A DNA stretch of 64,000 nucleotides from an uncultured Nitrososphaerota archaeon (GCA_963799845.1 CAWCYI010000006.1:160001-224000), one strand, 5' to 3'; shown: positions 55,789-64,000, counted from the stretch's first letter. Program-made: numbers and translations. Notes: a model not told the origin generated them from the sequence alone.

Positions 55789-56824
55789 TGGTGATCACCC
55801 ATGTCAATATTGCAGTTAGACCCGCCAGAAAGGCAGTGTAGGCGCTTAACTTCAGGATGTCGCGACCAATCTGCTTTTCGGTTTTTGCTTGGGTCCCGAC
55901 GAGCAAACGCATCAGAGTAACTGGAGCATTCGGGTCTTCAGTTGCAAGCATCGTATTATCCGGCAGAATGACAACTGGCTGGGATTTGATCTCGCGATGC
56001 TCGACCAAACGTCTTACACTGGAAAGGAAGAAGAACGAATTCATTATCGCGGGCAGGATTGCGATGACGGCGACCACCTCGACGCCTCCGATGATAGCCA
56101 TCGTACCATAAGCGGCCCCCAGTGCCATTGCACCAGAGTCACCTGGAAATATCTTCGAAGGAAATTTGTGAAAGTAGTAGAAAGCCAGGGTGGCAGTCAC
56201 AAATGGAAAGAAAGTCGCCAGAATGACCGGATTTTCCTTTCCCACGAGGTAACGGAGGATTATTGCAAACCCCATCGGTACAGAAGCAATTAGAATCGTG
56301 CCGGTTACGACCCCGTTCAGCACGTCAATCGTGTTAATCGTGTTGGTGACAACGGGGATTGCAACTATAATCAGTAATATGTAGATTAGCGGAACGTTTG
56401 TGGGCTCGCGAAAGAGGGGCAGGTAAAGATGGGGGTTGTAAACCATCGCCCCGGGCACCAGATACTGGAGAGCAACCAGCGGGAGACCTCCAACTAGCAA
56501 TAGCGCAGGCTTTACAATTCCTCCCAGAGTTTTGAGATCGTCAACAACGCCGATGAGCCCCGAAAGCAAAGTCACCAGTGCCAGCCCCAGAGAGGCGTAG
56601 CTTCCGGTAATCGCGAAAAGAAAGACTTCGGATGCGACAATCGCGAAGATGATCGCGGGGCCGCCCGGTCTAGGAATCTGGGGTTTTCCTACCTTGTGAT
56701 AATCCAGCACAGTCATTTTCTTTTTTGGAAGGTACTCGATCAGGGCCTTGGTTCCACACAAGCACAGAAAAAATGAGAATACCGAGACAGACAGTGCTTC
56801 CGCAACAAGATTCAGATAGGACAA
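55781..56824 (-). CDS. aglH: UDP-GlcNAc:dolichol-phosphate GlcNAc-1-P transferase (glycosyltransferase family 4/MraY-like)
   Basis: D.HK, PGG, G..DD, N..D.LNG and IFPGDSG motifs; multiple TM helices. Confidence 0.85.
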   Translation of the reverse strand: MSYLNLVAEALSVSVFSFFLCLCGTKALIEYLPKKKMTVLDYHKVGKPQIPRPGGPAIIFAIVASEVFLFAITGSYASLGLALVTLLSGLIGVVDDLKTLGGIVKPALLLVGGLPLVALQYLVPGAMVYNPHLYLPLFREPTNVPLIYILLIIVAIPVVTNTINTIDVLNGVVTGTILIASVPMGFAIILRYLVGKENPVILATFFPFVTATLAFYYFHKFPSKIFPGDSGAMALGAAYGTMAIIGGVEVVAVIAILPAIMNSFFFLSSVRRLVEHREIKSQPVVILPDNTMLATEDPNAPVTLMRLLVGTQAKTEKQIGRDILKLSAYTAFLAGLTAILTWVITIA

Positions 56825-56943
56825 AGCGATATTCTAAAAATCCGTATTCACACTTTTGCGATTTTCAATTTTAAAATGCTATCCCAGTTGATCTTAACAG
56901 TTTAAATAATAACTTCTGCAAAGGAAAGTGCTGTTAAAACGAA

Positions 56944-57231
56944 TTGAGAATCGCTGATCTAAAGGGCGAACAAAGTCGAGTAGACGTTGAAGGCGAGGTA
57001 ATTGAGAAAGGGGAGGTTAGGACTGTCAATCTTCGAGCTGGGGGTTCTTCGACCGTGGCAGATGCGACGATAAAGGACGACAGCGGGACGATCAAACTTT
57101 CTTTGTGGGGAGAGCAGATCAACTCTGTAGATGTCGGTGACAAGGTTAGGATCGAAAACGGGTACACGAAAGCGTTCCGTGGAGAAGTCCAGCTGAACAT
57201 CGGCAGATACGGAAAGCTCGCCAAAGTCTAG
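56944..57231 (+). CDS. ssb: Single OB-fold ssDNA-binding protein
   Basis: D.SG.I.LSLW and GD.V.IENGY...FRG..QLNIGRYG motifs. Confidence 0.85.
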   Translation: MRIADLKGEQSRVDVEGEVIEKGEVRTVNLRAGGSSTVADATIKDDSGTIKLSLWGEQINSVDVGDKVRIENGYTKAFRGEVQLNIGRYGKLAKV

Positions 57232-57334
57232 AAAGATTCTTCGTGAATCCTCTGGCATTCTCTGCCAGAGTTCATCTAACTTTGTACTAAAGCTCTGAAA
57301 CTTTTAAAAATCTCACTCGTGCTTCTCCTCTTTT

Positions 57335-57940
57335 ATGGTAAAGAAATACACTCTTCCGGAACTTCCCTACAAATACGACGCTTTGGAACCGTACATCTCG
57401 AAAGAGATAATGACGCTTCATCACGATAAGCATCATCTCGCCTATGTCAACGGCGCGAACGCCGCGTTGGACAAGCTGGATATGGGCAGGAAAAACAACT
57501 GGCAGGGCGTAGACCTCAAGGCTGTCGAACGTGACTTGAGTTTCAACCTCGCTGGACACGTGTTGCACTCTGTTTTTTGGCCGAACATGAAGGCAAACGG
57601 CGGGGGTAAACCAGGCGGGAAACTGGCTGACAAGATCAACGAAGATTTTGGCACCTTTGACGCGTTCAAAGCACAGCTCTCTGCGGCCGCAAAGCAGGTC
57701 GAAGGCTCTGGATGGGGATTGCTCGTCTACGATCCAACCAGCGACCAGTTGTTGACGCTTCAGGCTGAAAAGCACAACCTGCTCGCGACTCAGAACTCCT
57801 TCCCATTGCTGGTTTGCGATGTCTGGGAGCATGCGTACTATCTGCAGTACAAGAACGACCGGGGAGCCTATGTCGACGCCTTCTGGAACGTAATCAACTG
57901 GGACTATGTCGACGGGCAGCTTGCGACTGCTGTGATGTAG
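57335..57940 (+). CDS. sod: Fe/Mn superoxide dismutase
   Basis: HHDKHH, GH.LHS.FW and DVWEHAYY motifs. Confidence 0.97.
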   Translation: MVKKYTLPELPYKYDALEPYISKEIMTLHHDKHHLAYVNGANAALDKLDMGRKNNWQGVDLKAVERDLSFNLAGHVLHSVFWPNMKANGGGKPGGKLADKINEDFGTFDAFKAQLSAAAKQVEGSGWGLLVYDPTSDQLLTLQAEKHNLLATQNSFPLLVCDVWEHAYYLQYKNDRGAYVDAFWNVINWDYVDGQLATAVM

Positions 57941-57951
57941 AATTCAACTCG

Positions 57952-57975
57952 GAACGCCCTAATTTTGGGGCGTTC
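57952..57975. terminator. Hairpin between convergent sod and metK
   Basis: gaacgccc-N8-gggcgttc. Confidence 0.45.
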
Positions 57976-57986
57976 TATGAATTTTT

Positions 57987-59175
57987 TTAGAATATTGAGT
58001 GCTCTCTCTTCACGATCTGCTTCCAGAGGTTTGGCATATCTTTCATTTTTTCTTCTACGATTGACTGGACGTCCTTTTCCAGCTTAGAGTTCCTCTGAGT
58101 GAATAGATCAACGTTGATCGCCTGCGGCTGGTTGATCGGCTTGCCGATTTCCGAAACAATGTAACAAGCTGTCTGCTCGAGTTCGGGGTATTCCTTCCGA
58201 ATTGCAGAGACGATTGTGCTTGCACAGATGTTGTAGATCTTTCCAGTGTGATTGATTGGATTTTTCCCCGCGGTAGCCTCCAGTGTCATTGGTCTGAAGG
58301 GCGTTATCAGCCCATTTGCCCTGTTTCCTCTACCGACTTGACCGTCGTCTCCGTGTTCGGCGCTAGTACCTGTAACAGTAAGGTAGTAGAGCTTCTTAGC
58401 GAAGTTATCGGCCGTGTTTACCTTGATTGCCACGTCCATCGAAGTGTACTTGTTGGCTACGCCCTGAGCAATCTCTCGGACTATATCCCGAGTTTCACTG
58501 TATTCGGCTTCGTCTTTCACAAATTTTGAAATTATCGCGCAGGCAATGGTCAGATTGATTTTGTCATGACGCCTGACTCCCATGACCTTGATATCCTCGC
58601 CGATCTGAGGGTATTTTCTCTTGACGTCACCGGAGTTTCAGCTCGGTTTCCACATTGTACACTACGTTTTCGATTTCGGTATTGGGGCCGTACCAGACGC
58701 CAAAACTTGTATCGTTGGAGAGCGGAACATCGTCTTCTAGGTCATAGTTCTTGACGAGATCTACGCTCCCTGGCCTAATTTTGGTGGCAATCGTGACGTC
58801 TTTCTCTGCATCCAGAGCGTGCATCTCCTTTTTCATCCATTCGCGCGTGACCTCCTGCGCGATCTTTTCAATGGGGACTTCCTTTCCTTCGATTCGACTC
58901 GCTGCACGCCCGACAATCATCAGATAAATCGGCTCGGTCACTCGGCCCCCGCCGAAAGTGACTTGGGATTGACCGCCGACCAGTACGCACTTGTCCACAT
59001 TATGGTGATAAATTCGCCCGAAGTTTGAAAGATAGTAGTCGCATAGAGCTATGCTCAACTCTTCGGCGGCACGGTCTGAGAGAGTGTCCGGATGTCCCTT
59101 GCCCTTTCTTTCCACGAACTCGACGGGCATTTTGGAAACAGTTGTATTTGCAGAAAATGTAATCTCTAGGTTCAA
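57987..59175 (-). CDS. metK: Archaeal S-adenosylmethionine synthetase, frameshifted near 58630
   Basis: VERKGKGHPD, HHNVDK, SNDTSFGV, GTSAEHGDDG.VGRGNR and AGKNP..H.GK motifs. Confidence 0.93.
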
Positions 59176-59318
59176 TTATGAAGATCTCGCAGCTATTTCC
59201 TAACACGGCGTGAATTATGCCTTTTAACGATTTTTACTTCCAATAATAATTGAAACCCTAAAAAATTCCTAAAGGAATAACACGGTCAATTCAGCATTAA
59301 TACCATTAAGGGTACTTT

Positions 59319-60359
59319 TTGGAAAAAAAGCGTGTATTCAATTCGATGATGTTTAGTGTGGACTCTACGTTGACAGGCATTCACTCTCGATCTGAAGAGA
59401 CTGTGAAAGTGTCGAGAGATTACGATCGTTCCAGAGCAACCAAGGAGACTCTGGATTCTACGTTTGAAGCAGATGCAAAAAACCTGGTAAAATTACAACT
59501 GGAATCGGGAATTAGTCGAATCTCTGACGGACAATTACTCTGGCAGGATTTTATCCGCCCGTTCTCTGAAAGTCTTATCGGTCTGAAAGGCGGCGCTGAC
59601 CTGTCTCGATGGTTTGACACCAATTCCTTTTACCGAAAGCCTTCGGTTGTAAGAAAGGTAAAACTCCCTGAAGATAGATCCTTCATTCAAGATTATGAGG
59701 TAGCTTCCGCCCTAAGTCTCGCAAAAGAGGCCAAGGCAAAGAAGAAGCTGTCAATTCCGGGGCCGTACACTCTGGCAAGCCTCGTTCAGGACGATTACTA
59801 TGACTCGCGGGATGAATTGATCGAGGATTTTGCCAAGGTTATCAAGAAACTCCTGAAGAATCTCGTGAACCTTGGTTATGAATCAGTTCAGATAAACGAA
59901 CCTTCACTGGTTTATCGTTACGGAATATCCGCACTGACGAGCAAGAAGGAACTCAAGAGTTTCATTTCTGCTTTCGACGACAACTTCAGGTCGCCTCCAC
60001 TCCAGTTGAGTCTCCACACATACTTCGGGGATTCGTCGCAAATTTTGAACAAACTGCTTGATCTGGAAGGGGTTTCTGAGATAGGCATCGACTTTACTCA
60101 AACTTCACTGGATTCGTTAGAAGGGAGCGAGTTCGATGAAAAGGCTCTAGCCTGTGCGTGTGTGGACGGAAGGAATTCACTTGTTGAATCCCCCGAGTGG
60201 ATTTCGGACTTCTGTCTAGATGCGGTGAAGACTCTGAAGCCCTCCGGATTAGTGATCCTTCCAAGTTCGGAATTGAAGTACTTACCGAGAAATGTTGCCG
60301 ACGAAAAAATAAGCGCTATCGGCAAAGCGGCGACAATTGTTAGGAAGAAGTTGAACTAA
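59319..60359 (+). CDS. Split MetE, N-terminal (non-catalytic, folate-binding) barrel
   Basis: DGQ..W.D, RWFDTN.FYR.P, GPYTL, TYFG and VDGRN motifs; no Zn ligands. Confidence 0.8.
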   Translation: MEKKRVFNSMMFSVDSTLTGIHSRSEETVKVSRDYDRSRATKETLDSTFEADAKNLVKLQLESGISRISDGQLLWQDFIRPFSESLIGLKGGADLSRWFDTNSFYRKPSVVRKVKLPEDRSFIQDYEVASALSLAKEAKAKKKLSIPGPYTLASLVQDDYYDSRDELIEDFAKVIKKLLKNLVNLGYESVQINEPSLVYRYGISALTSKKELKSFISAFDDNFRSPPLQLSLHTYFGDSSQILNKLLDLEGVSEIGIDFTQTSLDSLEGSEFDEKALACACVDGRNSLVESPEWISDFCLDAVKTLKPSGLVILPSSELKYLPRNVADEKISAIGKAATIVRKKLN

Positions 60360-60362
60360 ATT

Positions 60363-61616
60363 TTGGCGAAGAATAAAATTTCAGAATCAAAGTTATTCCC
60401 TCTTCAGGAGATCGGGAGCATCGCCAAACCGGCCTGGCGGGTAAAGGGAGTTTCAAATGATTCCAGAATCTCTGATAGTGACATCGAAAACGCCGCATTG
60501 TGGGGGGAAAAAGTCGGAGTAAAGGACTATGAAAAACTCGTAGAACTGCTGACCCGAAGGTCTCAATCAGGTATCCCCCCGACGGAGGAAGAAAAAGAAC
60601 TGGTCCGGGATTTCTCTGTGATTTACGTACTTTCCTTGTTTGACAAGGTCGGGCTGGATCGAGTCTATTCCGGCGAGCAGTGGAGAGTCGAGATGTATGA
60701 ACACCTCGTAAGGAATATCAAGGGATTCAAACTCCTCGGTTCCGTTCATTCGTTCGATTACAAGTACTTCACGAAGGGCGCGATTTTAGGCGTTCCGGAG
60801 TTTATCCACCCGATCCTTCTGGACGAGTTTCAGTTTGTAAAAGCCCACACGAACCGTTTCGTCAAAATACCGATAACGGGGCCTTACACCACTGTAGATT
60901 GGTCTTTCAATGAATATTACGAGACTCTAGCGAGAAAAAAATCAAAGGGCAGAAGGATAGATCTCAGAAGGACTTACTTCGAGGCCCGGAGAAATTTTAT
61001 TCTGGATCTTGTGAAGAATGCTCTTAGACCGGAGGTCGAATCGCTGATCAAGAATGGCGCCGAGTGGATTCAAGTCGATGAGCCGGCCGTGACAACTCGC
61101 CCTGACGACGATGAGATGCAACTTTTTGTCGATGCGATAAATGCCCTCACTTCTGGGTTTAGTGGCTGCGTCTTTAGTGTCCATAACTGCTATAGTGATT
61201 ACAAGCTGCTTGCGCGGTACTCGGTGCAGTTGAAGGACATCACGCAGCTCGCGCTAGAGTTCGCCAACAGGGATTCCACCGATCTCGGTATGGATAAAAA
61301 GACCAGACCGGGCTACACCGACCTCAGGCATTTCGAGAAAGAAGGATACGAGGGAGGGTTTGGTTTGGGAGTTACACACGTACATGACTTTTCCGGATCT
61401 TCGGGCGAAGGAGCCGTCGTGGAGGGGAGAAACGTTTTGGAATCCCCCAAACTCGTCAGAGACCGAATCTTGTTCGCAACAAGTATCATCAAAGACCCGT
61501 CAAGAATTTCAGTGAATCCAGACTGCGGGTTGAGGACTAGAGACTGGGAAACCATGTACAAGAAACTGGAAGTAATGGTCGAGGGAACGAAGCTTGCCAG
61601 AAAGAAGATCAGCTAA
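60363..61616 (+). CDS. metE: Split MetE, catalytic barrel
   Basis: EIGS, GE..R..M, ITGP.T and Q.DEPA motifs; Zn ligands HNC, E (LEFANR) and PDCGL. Confidence 0.9.
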   Translation: MAKNKISESKLFPLQEIGSIAKPAWRVKGVSNDSRISDSDIENAALWGEKVGVKDYEKLVELLTRRSQSGIPPTEEEKELVRDFSVIYVLSLFDKVGLDRVYSGEQWRVEMYEHLVRNIKGFKLLGSVHSFDYKYFTKGAILGVPEFIHPILLDEFQFVKAHTNRFVKIPITGPYTTVDWSFNEYYETLARKKSKGRRIDLRRTYFEARRNFILDLVKNALRPEVESLIKNGAEWIQVDEPAVTTRPDDDEMQLFVDAINALTSGFSGCVFSVHNCYSDYKLLARYSVQLKDITQLALEFANRDSTDLGMDKKTRPGYTDLRHFEKEGYEGGFGLGVTHVHDFSGSSGEGAVVEGRNVLESPKLVRDRILFATSIIKDPSRISVNPDCGLRTRDWETMYKKLEVMVEGTKLARKKIS

Positions 61617-62871
61617 GAAGAAGAGCAAGTTCCCGTCGACTACCGTCATCGGCAGTTATCCGATAACAGTTCCCGAAAGCGAGATCGAGCAGTTCAAGTC
61701 ATTTCCCGAAGAGAGCCAAGATCCGGTAAATTCTACTATACAGCTTGCCGTACGCGATTTCATCAGCGCTGGAATAGAATTCCCTTCCACAGGTCAAACC
61801 AGAGAATCGTTCGTCAGGCTATTTCTAGATCCCGACCATGTCGAGGGGATAGAATACAACGGCTCGGAAATTCTGGTACGTGGAAAAATTCGACGAAAAT
61901 CCCCTATCCGTTTGTCTGACGTCCAAGAAGCGAAATCCCTGATTCCAAAGTATTACGGATTCAAGGAGCCGGTGACTGACCCCTATACACTTGCGAGGAA
62001 TTGCAGAATCGAGTCCAACTCTTACTCTGACCTGCGTGAACTGACTTTTGCGATTGCAAGAGAAATTGTTCGGCCTGAGCTTGAATCGATCCAGGGCCTG
62101 GTAGACTATGTTCAGCTCGACGCGCCGCATTTCTCATTCGAGCCGTTCAAGGATTATATCAATGCCGTCTATGAAGAGATGCTATCGGGCATAAAAATTC
62201 CAGTTGTGCTTCACGTCTGTGGCGATTCGTTCTCGGTCTTCAAGGAATTGACGAAACTTAATGTTGATATCATCAGCCTTGACTTCACTTTCAATGACAA
62301 ACTGCTTGACGAGGTCGCGCGTCGAAATTTCGATCAAGAGATCGGTCTCGGTTGTGTAAGCACGGGTAGTCTGATCGTCGAGCCTGTCAAGAGCATTTCC
62401 AATCTCATTCAGCGCTCTGCCACGAAGCTTGGCGAATCGAGAATCCGCTTTGTTCATCCCGCCTGCGGAGAAAGAAATCTACCACTGGATACCGCGTATC
62501 AGAAAAACATCAATCTGACGCTTGCGAGGAACGAGGTCTTCCTAGGTTCCCCGCAAACGGCAAAGAGCGTCAACCTAAGCGAAAACGAATACGATCCAAA
62601 CGGGTATTTCTTGATCCAGGTTGACCCACAAAGTCAACAGATTTACGTTTCGTTTAACTCGTACGACAACATTCCAAAGTTCAGAGTCCAGTCCGCCAGC
62701 GGCGAGAAGCTGATCGGCGCCATAATTGACAGCAAGATCATCAGCGATACCGACCTGGGAAAAAGGCATCTCGGTTATGTTGGTTACGAAATAGGGAAAG
62801 CCGAAACCGCCCTAAAGAATAGAGTCCCTTACAGACAAGACAAACCGCTGAGCCTACCGGGAATCTACTGA
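61594..62871 (+). CDS. Core (MesA-like) methionine synthase barrel fused to a C-terminal DUF4346-like domain
   Basis: TTVIGSYP, HVC, SLD and PACG motifs; then DPNGYFLI.VD...H..Y.G.E..KAE.AL....Y.QD. Confidence 0.75.
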   Translation: MPERRSAKKKSKFPSTTVIGSYPITVPESEIEQFKSFPEESQDPVNSTIQLAVRDFISAGIEFPSTGQTRESFVRLFLDPDHVEGIEYNGSEILVRGKIRRKSPIRLSDVQEAKSLIPKYYGFKEPVTDPYTLARNCRIESNSYSDLRELTFAIAREIVRPELESIQGLVDYVQLDAPHFSFEPFKDYINAVYEEMLSGIKIPVVLHVCGDSFSVFKELTKLNVDIISLDFTFNDKLLDEVARRNFDQEIGLGCVSTGSLIVEPVKSISNLIQRSATKLGESRIRFVHPACGERNLPLDTAYQKNINLTLARNEVFLGSPQTAKSVNLSENEYDPNGYFLIQVDPQSQQIYVSFNSYDNIPKFRVQSASGEKLIGAIIDSKIISDTDLGKRHLGYVGYEIGKAETALKNRVPYRQDKPLSLPGIY

Positions 62872-62893
62872 TTCGCGGGCCCTTTTCTCTTCG

Positions 62894-63802
62894 GTGGTAC
62901 TCGCTTTGCGAGTTTCAGATGTAATCAATTCGGGAAACTTTGCAAGGATCATTGAGATCTTTCCGCCGGGTATGCCCGCGCCTGGTTCCATTAAGTCCAA
63001 TCAGAGAATCGATCTCTCCGTGCGTTTTGAGAGAATAGTCGAAAGCATTGGGCAACTCGAAGCTCTCGCAGATGCTTTTTCTCTCCCTGAGCTTCGCGAC
63101 GGGTCGCGAATTCACCTCAATTCGGTTTCCGTTGCCGCAGAGCTAAAGCGGAGAACGACGAGCTCGATTATTCCAACGATAACACTCAGAGACTCGAACA
63201 AGCAGAATCTTCTAGGAACGATTACTTTCGCTATCTTCTCTGGGGTAGAAAACGTTCAGATAGTCAGGGGTGACCCATATAACTCTGATTCAGGACTAGA
63301 GCCAAAGAATGTTTACGATTTTTCCAAGATTGCCACATTCGTTACTATAGTCAGGGATCTTGAAACTCACCTTTCAAACGCACAAAAAACCTGCATCCTC
63401 GCACCGCTGAATCTTACAAAAATTTCCGATCCAAACTACGTCAGGATAGCCAAGCAGAGAGAAGTATCTGGCGTAGATATTTTTGTGACGGAATCACTGT
63501 TCGAAGATACGTCAAAGTATCTTGATCGTGTAGTTTTGGCTAGGGAAAAAGGAATCAAAATACCTATCATTCACAATATATTTCCATTCCGAAGCTACGA
63601 GGATGCTGTGTCATGCGTACTGAAATTTGGATGGAAAATTTCCGAGGCGGAACTTCAAGGACTCAAGTCAGGCGGAGCGAAGTATGGCATAGAAACTGCC
63701 AGGAAGAGATATTTTGATCTTATAGATCGAAAAGAAATCTCACAGGGGGCCTGCATTTCTACGAGGGGAAACACGGAAATCGTTCGGCAAATAGTTTACT
63801 AA
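62894..63802 (+). CDS. metF: Divergent methylenetetrahydrofolate reductase-like protein
   Basis: E.FPP, T.RD.N, RGDP and G.D.FVT motifs; located in a methionine operon. Confidence 0.7.
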   Translation: MVLALRVSDVINSGNFARIIEIFPPGMPAPGSIKSNQRIDLSVRFERIVESIGQLEALADAFSLPELRDGSRIHLNSVSVAAELKRRTTSSIIPTITLRDSNKQNLLGTITFAIFSGVENVQIVRGDPYNSDSGLEPKNVYDFSKIATFVTIVRDLETHLSNAQKTCILAPLNLTKISDPNYVRIAKQREVSGVDIFVTESLFEDTSKYLDRVVLAREKGIKIPIIHNIFPFRSYEDAVSCVLKFGWKISEAELQGLKSGGAKYGIETARKRYFDLIDRKEISQGACISTRGNTEIVRQIVY

Positions 63803-63831
63803 TTTTTCAAGACTACTAAACAGAATGAGGG

Positions 63832-63911
63832 GAATGTGCCCCGGCTCTGACGCTAAGCGATCATCGATCTAGCACAGTTGCTTTTTCCTTTCACTAGCTC
63901 TTATCCGGGGC
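63832..63911 (-). ncRNA. Probable H/ACA pseudouridylation guide RNA
   Basis: Stem GCCCCGG/CCGGGGC followed by ACA; pocket AUAAGA/GUCAGAG; upper stem with GUGA/GAUGAUC K-turn-like motif; 14 nt from upper stem to ACA. Confidence 0.7.
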
Positions 63912-64000
63912 GCCGAAGAAAAGAAGTTTAGCGCGGCCTGTTTCACGCCTGGGTAAACCCCGTTCCTCACTGATCGGACAAGGCCGTCGGCGCGAATTCG

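Follow-up and report, generated by a model that had tools for sequence, protein, structure and literature searches.

A MesA-like zinc barrel fused to a DUF4346 domain and encoded beside an MTHFR homologue: a possible methyl-pterin-dependent methionine synthase in a thaumarchaeal operon

A stretch of 64,000 nt from an uncultured Nitrososphaerota archaeon (GCA_963799845.1, CAWCYI010000006.1:160001-224000; hereafter the window, whose coordinates are used throughout) contains four tightly packed open frames, g1 to g4, on the + strand and divergent from metK. The third gene, g3, encodes a predicted zinc-type methionine synthase barrel fused to a C-terminal PterinBD-DUF4346 domain. The reading that we favour, tentatively and with somewhat less than half of our confidence, is that g3 is a methionine synthase taking its methyl group directly from a methyl-pterin made by g4, a remote MTHFR homologue, with DUF4346 supplying the pterin site. 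The fused domain, together with the constant pairing with a methyl-folate-making reductase, suggests a route, so far undescribed, for supplying core methionine synthases with methyl groups. These enzymes are widespread, and their physiological methyl donors are mostly predicted rather than measured (PMC7857596). The setting of g3, which is paired with an MTHFR homologue in a lineage where known corrinoid carriers were not found, sharply narrows the choice of donor. It bears on whether a core barrel equipped with DUF4346 can use methyl-pterins, and on how methionine is made, without MetH, in soil Thaumarchaeota that do not oxidise ammonia. The fusion gene, its parts and the other genes of the operon are the following.

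61594-62871, + strand: g3, whole fusion gene, 425 amino acids (aa); Meth_synt_2 plus PterinBD-DUF4346 (PF14251)
61594..62544, + strand: g3 barrel, predicted MesA-like core Zn/homocysteine barrel, residues 1 to ~317
62545..62592, + strand: g3 linker from barrel to DUF4346, residues ~318-333, modelled with low confidence
62593..62871, + strand: g3 C-terminal PterinBD-DUF4346 (PF14251, residues 334-416), tail and stop codon
59319..60359, + strand: g1, predicted N-terminal-type barrel of split MetE, without Zn ligands, 346 aa; Meth_synt_1
60363..61616, + strand: g2, predicted MetE-type catalytic barrel of split MetE, 417 aa; Meth_synt_2
62894..63802, + strand: g4, remote MTHFR homologue, 302 aa; Pfam MTHFR

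The barrel of g3 matched the Pfam family Meth_synt_2 over residues 16-303 (2.1e-18, 67.1 bits against a cut-off of 21), and its translation carries the motifs TTVIGSYP, HVC, SLD and PACG. The best NCBIfam model was NF002119, at 166.6 bits, under the 258-bit MesA cut-off; canonical MetE, a double barrel of ~750 aa, scored 24.2 bits (TIGR01371, cut-off 929.95). Model NF004712, which we take to be that of MesC from its control matches (one passing genome, with only M. acetivorans and S. acidocaldarius matched), found no match in the source genome at E<=0.001. After the fusions, the closest relatives of g3 were standalone proteins of ~300 aa from Methanosarcinales, Altiarchaeota and others, mostly passing or approaching the NF002119 cut-off and labelled methionine synthase in their sources. 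A quick maximum-likelihood tree of 107 rows, with support from the Shimodaira-Hasegawa-like approximate likelihood-ratio test (SH-aLRT), placed 11 thaumarchaeal fusions in one clade (SH-aLRT 99), nested in a 24-row clade (SH-aLRT 98) with standalone ~300-aa proteins and two outside fusions, and placed g1 and g2 apart from g3, within a 25-row clade of split-MetE-type halves (SH-aLRT 98). Two MtrA-DUF4346 proteins (P0215 and P0246) entered the tree in error; they form a long-branched pair and leave the cited clades unaffected. Since g1 and g2 lie in a separate clade, g3 is not a copy of g2, and recent duplication of g2 is ruled out. In an AlphaFold2 model the barrel reached a predicted local distance difference test (pLDDT) value of 89.3, and Foldseek matched it to MetE barrels, that of T. 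maritima at 6.7e-19, with a template modelling score on the query of 0.61. By these sequence comparisons the barrel is MesA-like and not MetE-like, and the operon combines a MetE-type pair with a MesA-type barrel; a third, MesA-type zinc barrel with its own ligand set is what a sequence-only reading of the window had proposed.

Seven residues of g3 did not vary among 24 fusion proteins sharing 41-84% identity: Ser21, Gln68, Asp176, His207, Cys209, Asp230 and Cys291. In the family profile alignment they correspond to Ser411, Glu462, Asp577, His618, Cys620, Glu642 and Cys704 of T. maritima MetE (chain numbering, which is the numbering of the paper plus 32, calibrated on Ile409 and Ser411), an enzyme whose zinc, homocysteine and pterin contacts are assigned in PMC539065. 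The criteria used for core synthases, in E. coli numbering, were the zinc ligands H641, C643, E665 and C726 and the homocysteine residues Ser433, Glu484 or Gln, and Asp599. At the three homocysteine positions g3 has Ser21, Gln68 and Asp176, invariant in the 24 sequences, and MesA and MesC likewise have Gln where MetE has Glu462/Glu484 (PMC7857596). The third zinc position is occupied by the invariant Asp230 instead of Glu, and Asp is predicted to be a plausible ligand there. The sequence-only reading had spoken of a thiol methyltransferase; the invariant homocysteine triad allows a more specific prediction, that of a probable methionine synthase. It is very improbable that g3 would instead use the pterin pool to methylate a thiol other than homocysteine, or to take the methyl group off a methylated sulfur compound. 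Such a role would account for the otherwise redundant look of a second, identical activity beside a complete split MetE, and would suit Asp, not Glu, as third zinc ligand; yet the homocysteine triad is invariant across the family, the operon adjoins metK, and in one carrier genome (G014, below) g3 is the only methionine-synthase candidate found.

The C-terminal part of g3 matched PterinBD-DUF4346 (PF14251) at residues 334-416, nt 62593-62841 (2.2e-11, 44.8 bits against a cut-off of 29.6), where a DUF4346-like fusion had been read at about 62590-62850. In the whole-genome search of the source genome the domain scored 48.4 bits and occurred in one copy only, which rules out, for this genome, that the DUF4346 domains of two proteins pair with each other. 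The domain was modelled with a pLDDT of 83.8 as three strands followed by two helices; searches of the domain against the PDB gave no match by fold at E<=0.001 and none by profile at E<=10, and an ESM Atlas search with the DUF4346 part gave no usable match. The linker was weaker, with pLDDT values of 63 and 66 in the blocks covering residues 321-340 and below 50 at residues 330-333. In spite of this the whole-protein model reached a predicted template modelling score of 0.89, which suggests that, as modelled, the two domains pack in a defined arrangement.

Pfam's own name for the domain is PterinBD, and its company elsewhere is of the same kind. Other families of the order have DUF6513-Pterin_bind-DUF4346 proteins of 522-545 aa; the domain is also found C-terminal on MtrA-like proteins, and alone in P0268 (117 aa). 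Both of the associations named in the sequence-only reading, with dihydropteroate synthase (DHPS)-like and with MtrA-like proteins, were thus recovered. D334, G337, F339, Y395, E399, A403, L407, Y413 and Q415 were invariant across three aligned architectures, and the g3-type and DHPS-type domains share invariant Asp, Gly, Phe, two Tyr, Glu and Gln. The DHPS-like protein (TIGR00284) shares with g3 the C-terminal domain and the invariant Asp, Gly, Phe, Tyr, Glu and Gln positions in it, whereas its catalytic part is a pterin-binding barrel rather than a Zn barrel; it was not found in the source genome. A pterin-site role for DUF4346 is proposed because the domain occurs elsewhere in pterin and one-carbon enzymes, with invariant polar residues. 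If the role is correct, DUF4346 would gain a function across DHPS-like, MtrA-like and thymidylate-synthase-like proteins. A literature search found no paper naming DUF4346, and the g3-type fusion is not described in the main texts, as far as covered and supplements aside, of PMC7857596 or of its 2026 follow-up on MesA-D and split MetE (PMC13759103), in line with the suggestion of the sequence-only reading that the enzyme may be undescribed. Three loci with the DUF6513-Pterin_bind-DUF4346 gene, all on the - strand, were located at L028 1955-3520, L029 2024-3592 and L030 2010-3644; in L030 its neighbours are genes for DUF447 and for a sugar nucleotidyltransferase.

The fusion is genuine and ancient. 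PF14251 and PF01717 occur together, at 41-93% identity, in 114 of the best 120 among 221 database relatives; the remaining six are shorter (260-397 aa), three being labelled partial. The source names of the relatives are Nitrososphaerales or Thaumarchaeota metagenome-assembled genomes (MAGs). Within the order, whose families are designated by f-numbers and genomes by G-numbers (the source genome being G000, of family f1), full-length fusions occur in 49 of 401 genomes: G000, 11 of 12 further genomes of f1, the single genome of f3 (1/1) and 36 of the 97 of f9. The 17 other families had none, including f12 and f15 with 0/112 each; the f1 counts include the unpublished genome G001, and the pattern is the same without it. 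A search of 1.84 billion representatives returned only six 50%-identity clusters aligning over both domains (P0004, P0106, P0121, P0122, P0123 and P0124) and only 19 proteins at E<=1e-30. The 415-aa representative P0127 has no Pfam match and was excluded from the count of full-length fusions, and a metagenome scan with P0124 found no relative. The conservation in relatives, the occurrence in 49/401 genomes and the lack of indels on g3 in contigs of one read run (X1, below) rule out the indel artefact against which the sequence-only reading had cautioned. In a sample of 41 genomes, amoA was present in 8/8 genomes of f4, f8, f12 and f15 and was not found in G000, 12 other f1 genomes, one of f3 and two of f9; the fusion carriers thus belong to families in which amoA was not found.

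The partner gene g4 matched MTHFR (PF02219; 9.7e-10, 38.7 bits against a cut-off of 24), in line with its first description as MTHFR-like. It stayed far under the cut-offs of all NCBIfam MTHFR equivalogs (e.g. TIGR00676, 36.8 against 293.7), its best PDB match was Thermus MTHFR 1v93 (1.8e-4), and it is the sole MTHFR-family match in G000. Genes like g4 occur in 77 of the 401 genomes and are limited to f1, f3 and f9. All 49 carriers of g3 have one, in 48 of them within 400 nt and on the same strand (47 downstream, one upstream), the single exception being a contig break. Checks of neighbourhood conservation extended this to the rest of the operon: the order g1-g2-g3-g4 is kept in f1, and in f9 g2-g3-g4 was found in 6/6 fetched loci, with g1 detected by tblastn in 4/6. 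In G014 (f3, 75% complete) aconitase and UbiA genes flank a pair in which an MTHFR gene (7.3e-27) overlaps the fusion gene at its start. The contig has neither g1 nor g2, and in the whole of this assembly there was one Meth_synt_2 match, and no MetH homocysteine domain or other methionine synthase was found. A complex prediction for g3 and g4 (score 0.00, mark 0.32) was informative in neither direction. Four f9 genomes, G020, G063, G045 and G158 (L031-L034), have no g3 and carry a g4-like gene away from MetE-type genes.

The predicted methyl donors of core synthases are MtrA for MesA and CoFeSP for MesB and MesC (PMC7857596). Pfam-model searches of G000, which is 86.7% complete, did not find MtrA, MtrH or CdhD; they returned one Pterin_bind match, of DHPS type in a 298-aa open frame, and a sole B12-binding domain, which adjoins methylmalonyl-CoA mutase. 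MtrH was found in 0/5 g3-bearing genomes searched. Across the order, MtrA-like genes are present in 228 of 401 genomes (f12 98/112, f15 104/112, f4 7/9, f8 10/11, f11 6/10, f13 3/4), and in 0/12 of f1, 0/1 of f3 and 0/97 of f9, or 0/111 with G000; the unpublished G259 and G270 are among those counted, without effect on the pattern. The MtrA-like open frames of the ammonia-oxidising families are mostly of 155-260 aa (e.g. G023:C1 and G026:C1). Because MtrA, MtrH, CdhD and a B12-binding domain other than that of the mutase were not found, a corrinoid carrier in the g3 lineage is unlikely. The sequence-only reading had DUF4346 docking either a pterin or a corrinoid carrier; the pterin half of this fits the MTHFR pairing, and the corrinoid half is unlikely in this lineage. 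The complementarity with MtrA, combined with the pairing with MTHFR, is our main argument that g3 would draw on a methyl-pterin without a corrinoid relay. It suggests a lineage-level switch in one-carbon wiring, with MtrA-like genes in the sampled ammonia oxidisers and g3/g4 in the three families for which the search found no amoA.

In the mechanism that we favour, g4 would make N5-methyl-tetrahydropterin and g3, acting as a second methionine synthase, would take the methyl group from it with no corrinoid carrier in between. Zinc would be held by His207, Cys209, Asp230 and Cys291, and homocysteine would be bound through Ser21, Gln68 and Asp176. The 85-residue DUF4346 would hold the pterin above the catalytic face, a task performed in MetE by the cleft between its barrels, and g1 and g2 would form an ordinary split MetE drawing on the same methyl-pterin pool. 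The observations comprise the domain make-up, the conserved catalytic residues, the retention of the fusion and its MTHFR pairing, and searches in which no corrinoid carrier was detected; what we infer in this scheme is the methyl-pterin as donor, its binding by DUF4346 and the direct transfer. It is possible, though somewhat less likely than not, that g3 represents a fifth methionine route, in which a MesA-type zinc barrel receives a methyl group straight from methyl-pterin by way of an 85-residue pterin-binding domain; this would be a solution independent of the barrel duplication of MetE.

Comparison with canonical MetE (T. maritima, 1T7L/1XPG; PMC539065) bears on the proposed direct transfer from a methyl-pterin. 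The two proteins share the barrel fold and the zinc and homocysteine positions and, if our preferred reading holds, the chemistry would be shared too, with the zinc thiolate receiving the methyl group directly from methyl-pterin. Unlike MetE, g3 has no second barrel and carries an unrelated 85-residue domain instead, and the pterin contacts Trp539, Glu583, Arg493 and Arg496 are unmatched. This is the first of several points that weigh against the reading. Trp539 aligns with Asn136 of g3, Glu583 falls in a stretch that g3 lacks, and the g3 hairpin is shortened where MetE carries Arg493 and Arg496, loop alignments between the two being uncertain at such distance; DUF4346 would therefore have to supply all of the pterin binding. 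In addition, characterised core synthases use methylcobalamin in vitro (PMC7857596), the absences of corrinoid carriers rest on Pfam models and on draft genomes (G000 86.7% and G014 75% complete), and two synthases have been retained in one operon across a deep divergence without an explanation.

A further point comes from P0123, the nearest fusion outside Thaumarchaeota, which is encoded in a Nanoarchaeota MAG. It is 36% identical to g3 and has both PF01717 and PF14251, and its barrel passes NF002119 with 287.8 bits. The fusion gene is the third of an operon (L035 6555-10134, JAHIWS010000028.1), after genes for an MtrA-like (192 aa) and an MtrH-like (289 aa) protein, with a convergent canonical MTHFR gene (1.5e-61) at the operon end. 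The MtrA-like and MtrH-like genes thus occupy the upstream position that is held by the split MetE genes in the thaumarchaeal operon. The cassette was found in one of 201 genomes sampled from its phylum, that one being its source genome. By its gene content, the L035 operon is a candidate corrinoid-relay methionine synthase of a DPANN archaeon. Since this operon already has a pterin-binding methyltransferase, DUF4346 may serve a corrinoid relay as a docking or accessory module rather than form a pterin site. Plausibly, MtrA and MtrH were lost in the thaumarchaeal lineages, which retained the fusion and MTHFR and now have the split MetE genes where those two had stood.

Accordingly, g3 might work through a corrinoid relay, as is presumed of its MesA-like relatives, with DUF4346 as docking or accessory module for an unrecognised carrier or methyltransferase, or might use free cobamide; we consider this unlikely. 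Such a relay would suit a MesA-like barrel with Gln68, no Trp539 equivalent and a short hairpin, nested with NF002119-type core synthases, as well as the MtrA-like/MtrH-like operon of the DPANN fusion and the attachment of DUF4346 to MtrA in other proteins; cobamide is moreover used by the organism, since methylmalonyl-CoA mutase is present. These traits have to be set against the finding of MtrA in 0/111 genomes of f1, f3 and f9 (228 of 401 in the order) and of MtrH in 0/5 carriers of g3, and against a source genome where CdhD was not found, whose only Pterin_bind domain is of DHPS type and whose only B12-binding domain is that of the mutase. In addition, MtrA was not found in G017 and G033, both of which encode a DHPS-like DUF4346 protein. 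The criteria for MesA include methylcobalamin:homocysteine methyltransferase activity without activity on methyl-pterins. Like this core synthase of methanogens (NF002119 / PRK00957; PMC7857596), g3 has a single Zn barrel without the N-domain of MetE, a Ser/Gln/Asp homocysteine triad and HxC...C zinc motifs, and it nests in the tree among NF002119-type proteins. It differs from MesA in its score (166.6 bits, below 258), in having Asp and not Glu as third zinc ligand, in its C-terminal DUF4346, in its non-methanogen hosts, where MtrA was not found, and in its pairing with MTHFR.

The first two genes of the operon are predicted, from their domain scores and residues, to be a split MetE, as had been read from sequence. 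In g1, which carries the motifs TYFG and VDGRN, Meth_synt_1 scored 86.7 bits (2.7e-24) against 39.8 bits for Meth_synt_2. In g2, Meth_synt_2 was matched at 9.1e-21 and the motifs HNC, LALEF and PDCG are present, so that, for g1, g2 and g3 alike, every motif quoted in the sequence-only reading was found in the translations. The NCBIfam scores of g2 were under the cut-offs (NF003317, 222 bits against 406; NF002272, 212 bits), as was that for canonical MetE TIGR01371 (84.9 bits against 929.95). Aligned to T. maritima MetE, g2 retains Glu462, Met468, Trp539, Asp577 and the full-length hairpin. Split MetE has been delimited by an N component scoring higher on Meth_synt_1 than on Meth_synt_2, by adjacent genes, and by a catalytic component of <=400 aa with >=200 bits to Pyrococcus PF1269 (PMC7857596). 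The N-type barrel of g1 shows this order of scores (86.7 over 39.8 bits) and lies 3 nt from g2, and g2, as listed from a TTG start, has 417 aa. The listed start of g1 is also TTG; two ATG codons stand at residues 10-11. Alignments with relatives begin no earlier than about residue 10-18, and translation may therefore start at the ATG of 59346. Lying side by side and encoding an N-type barrel and a catalytic one, g1 and g2 resemble the archaeal split MetE of the PF1268/PF1269 type, predicted to use methyl-pterins (PMC7857596). The operon differs from the Pyrococcus type by g3, a third barrel of another lineage; neither a third barrel nor DUF4346 is mentioned in the parts of PMC7857596 covered here.

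The presence of a split MetE in the same operon raises the alternative that g3 acts in a complex with it, with g1 serving both catalytic barrels or all three barrels assembling, and with DUF4346 as the means of attachment. The conserved g1-g2-g3-g4 order in f1, the f9 loci with g2-g3-g4 in 6/6 and g1 in 4/6, and the 23-nt overlap of g2 and g3 would all suit such an assembly. However, the assembly of G014 contains g3 and MTHFR but neither g1 nor g2, whether on the same contig or on others, and g1 and g2 belong to a clade apart from g3; we therefore regard the complex as distinctly unlikely. A more distant parallel is the MetE-fusion of Phaeocystis and other protists (PMC10861871), in which a core MetE barrel likewise works through fused accessory domains, with an unknown donor. 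There the partners are PKS/PP-binding domains and a CzcO oxidoreductase, not DUF4346, and the proteins are eukaryotic or bacterial.

The layout of the locus was as first described, with four tightly coupled genes divergent from metK borne out by the open-frame listing and Pfam. Beyond the 3 nt between g1 and g2 and the g2/g3 overlap, g3 and g4 are separated by 22 nt, and a convergent PheRS beta-chain gene lies downstream of g4. Upstream of the operon are two further features.

57987..59175, - strand: metK, archaeal S-adenosylmethionine synthetase (Pfam AdoMet_Synthase), in two frames in the window
59176..59318, no strand: AT-rich intergenic stretch between metK and g1, presumed site of divergent promoters

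The GC fraction is 0.40 at 59000-59499. The intergenic stretch presumably holds the divergent promoters of metK and the operon, and an Rfam search of 56500-64000 at E up to 1 gave 0 matches and hence no sign of a riboswitch. The two metK frames, 57987-58583 and 58627-59175, matched AdoMet_Synthase at 1.7e-62 (profile positions 2-181) and 8.8e-74 (positions 199-394), and this is the sole copy in G000. Relative to G011 and G006 the window has one extra A in a run of A, and contigs of read runs X1 and X4, from a soil study, have one letter fewer at 58639. As relatives and run contigs both lack the extra base, the split of metK is an assembly error, and a pseudogene is ruled out. Read cover came from four runs, all contigs being from one study, and small stretches of g2 and g3 were uncovered. 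The X1 contig pieces on g3 and g4 have no gaps, and those on g3 no missing or added letters; X1 is possibly the sample behind the window assembly and therefore does not lend independent support to the g3 frame, whereas the conservation of the fusion in relatives does.

Some minor observations concern the assembly itself. The completeness of G000 is 86.7% despite only 9 contigs, a score that further indels like that of metK could explain. At 4.6 Mb, with a contamination estimate of 4.87%, G000 exceeds in size the sampled relatives of its family, which have 1.4-3.7 Mb. At position 63282, within g4, the window has A and the contigs of X1 and X2 have G.

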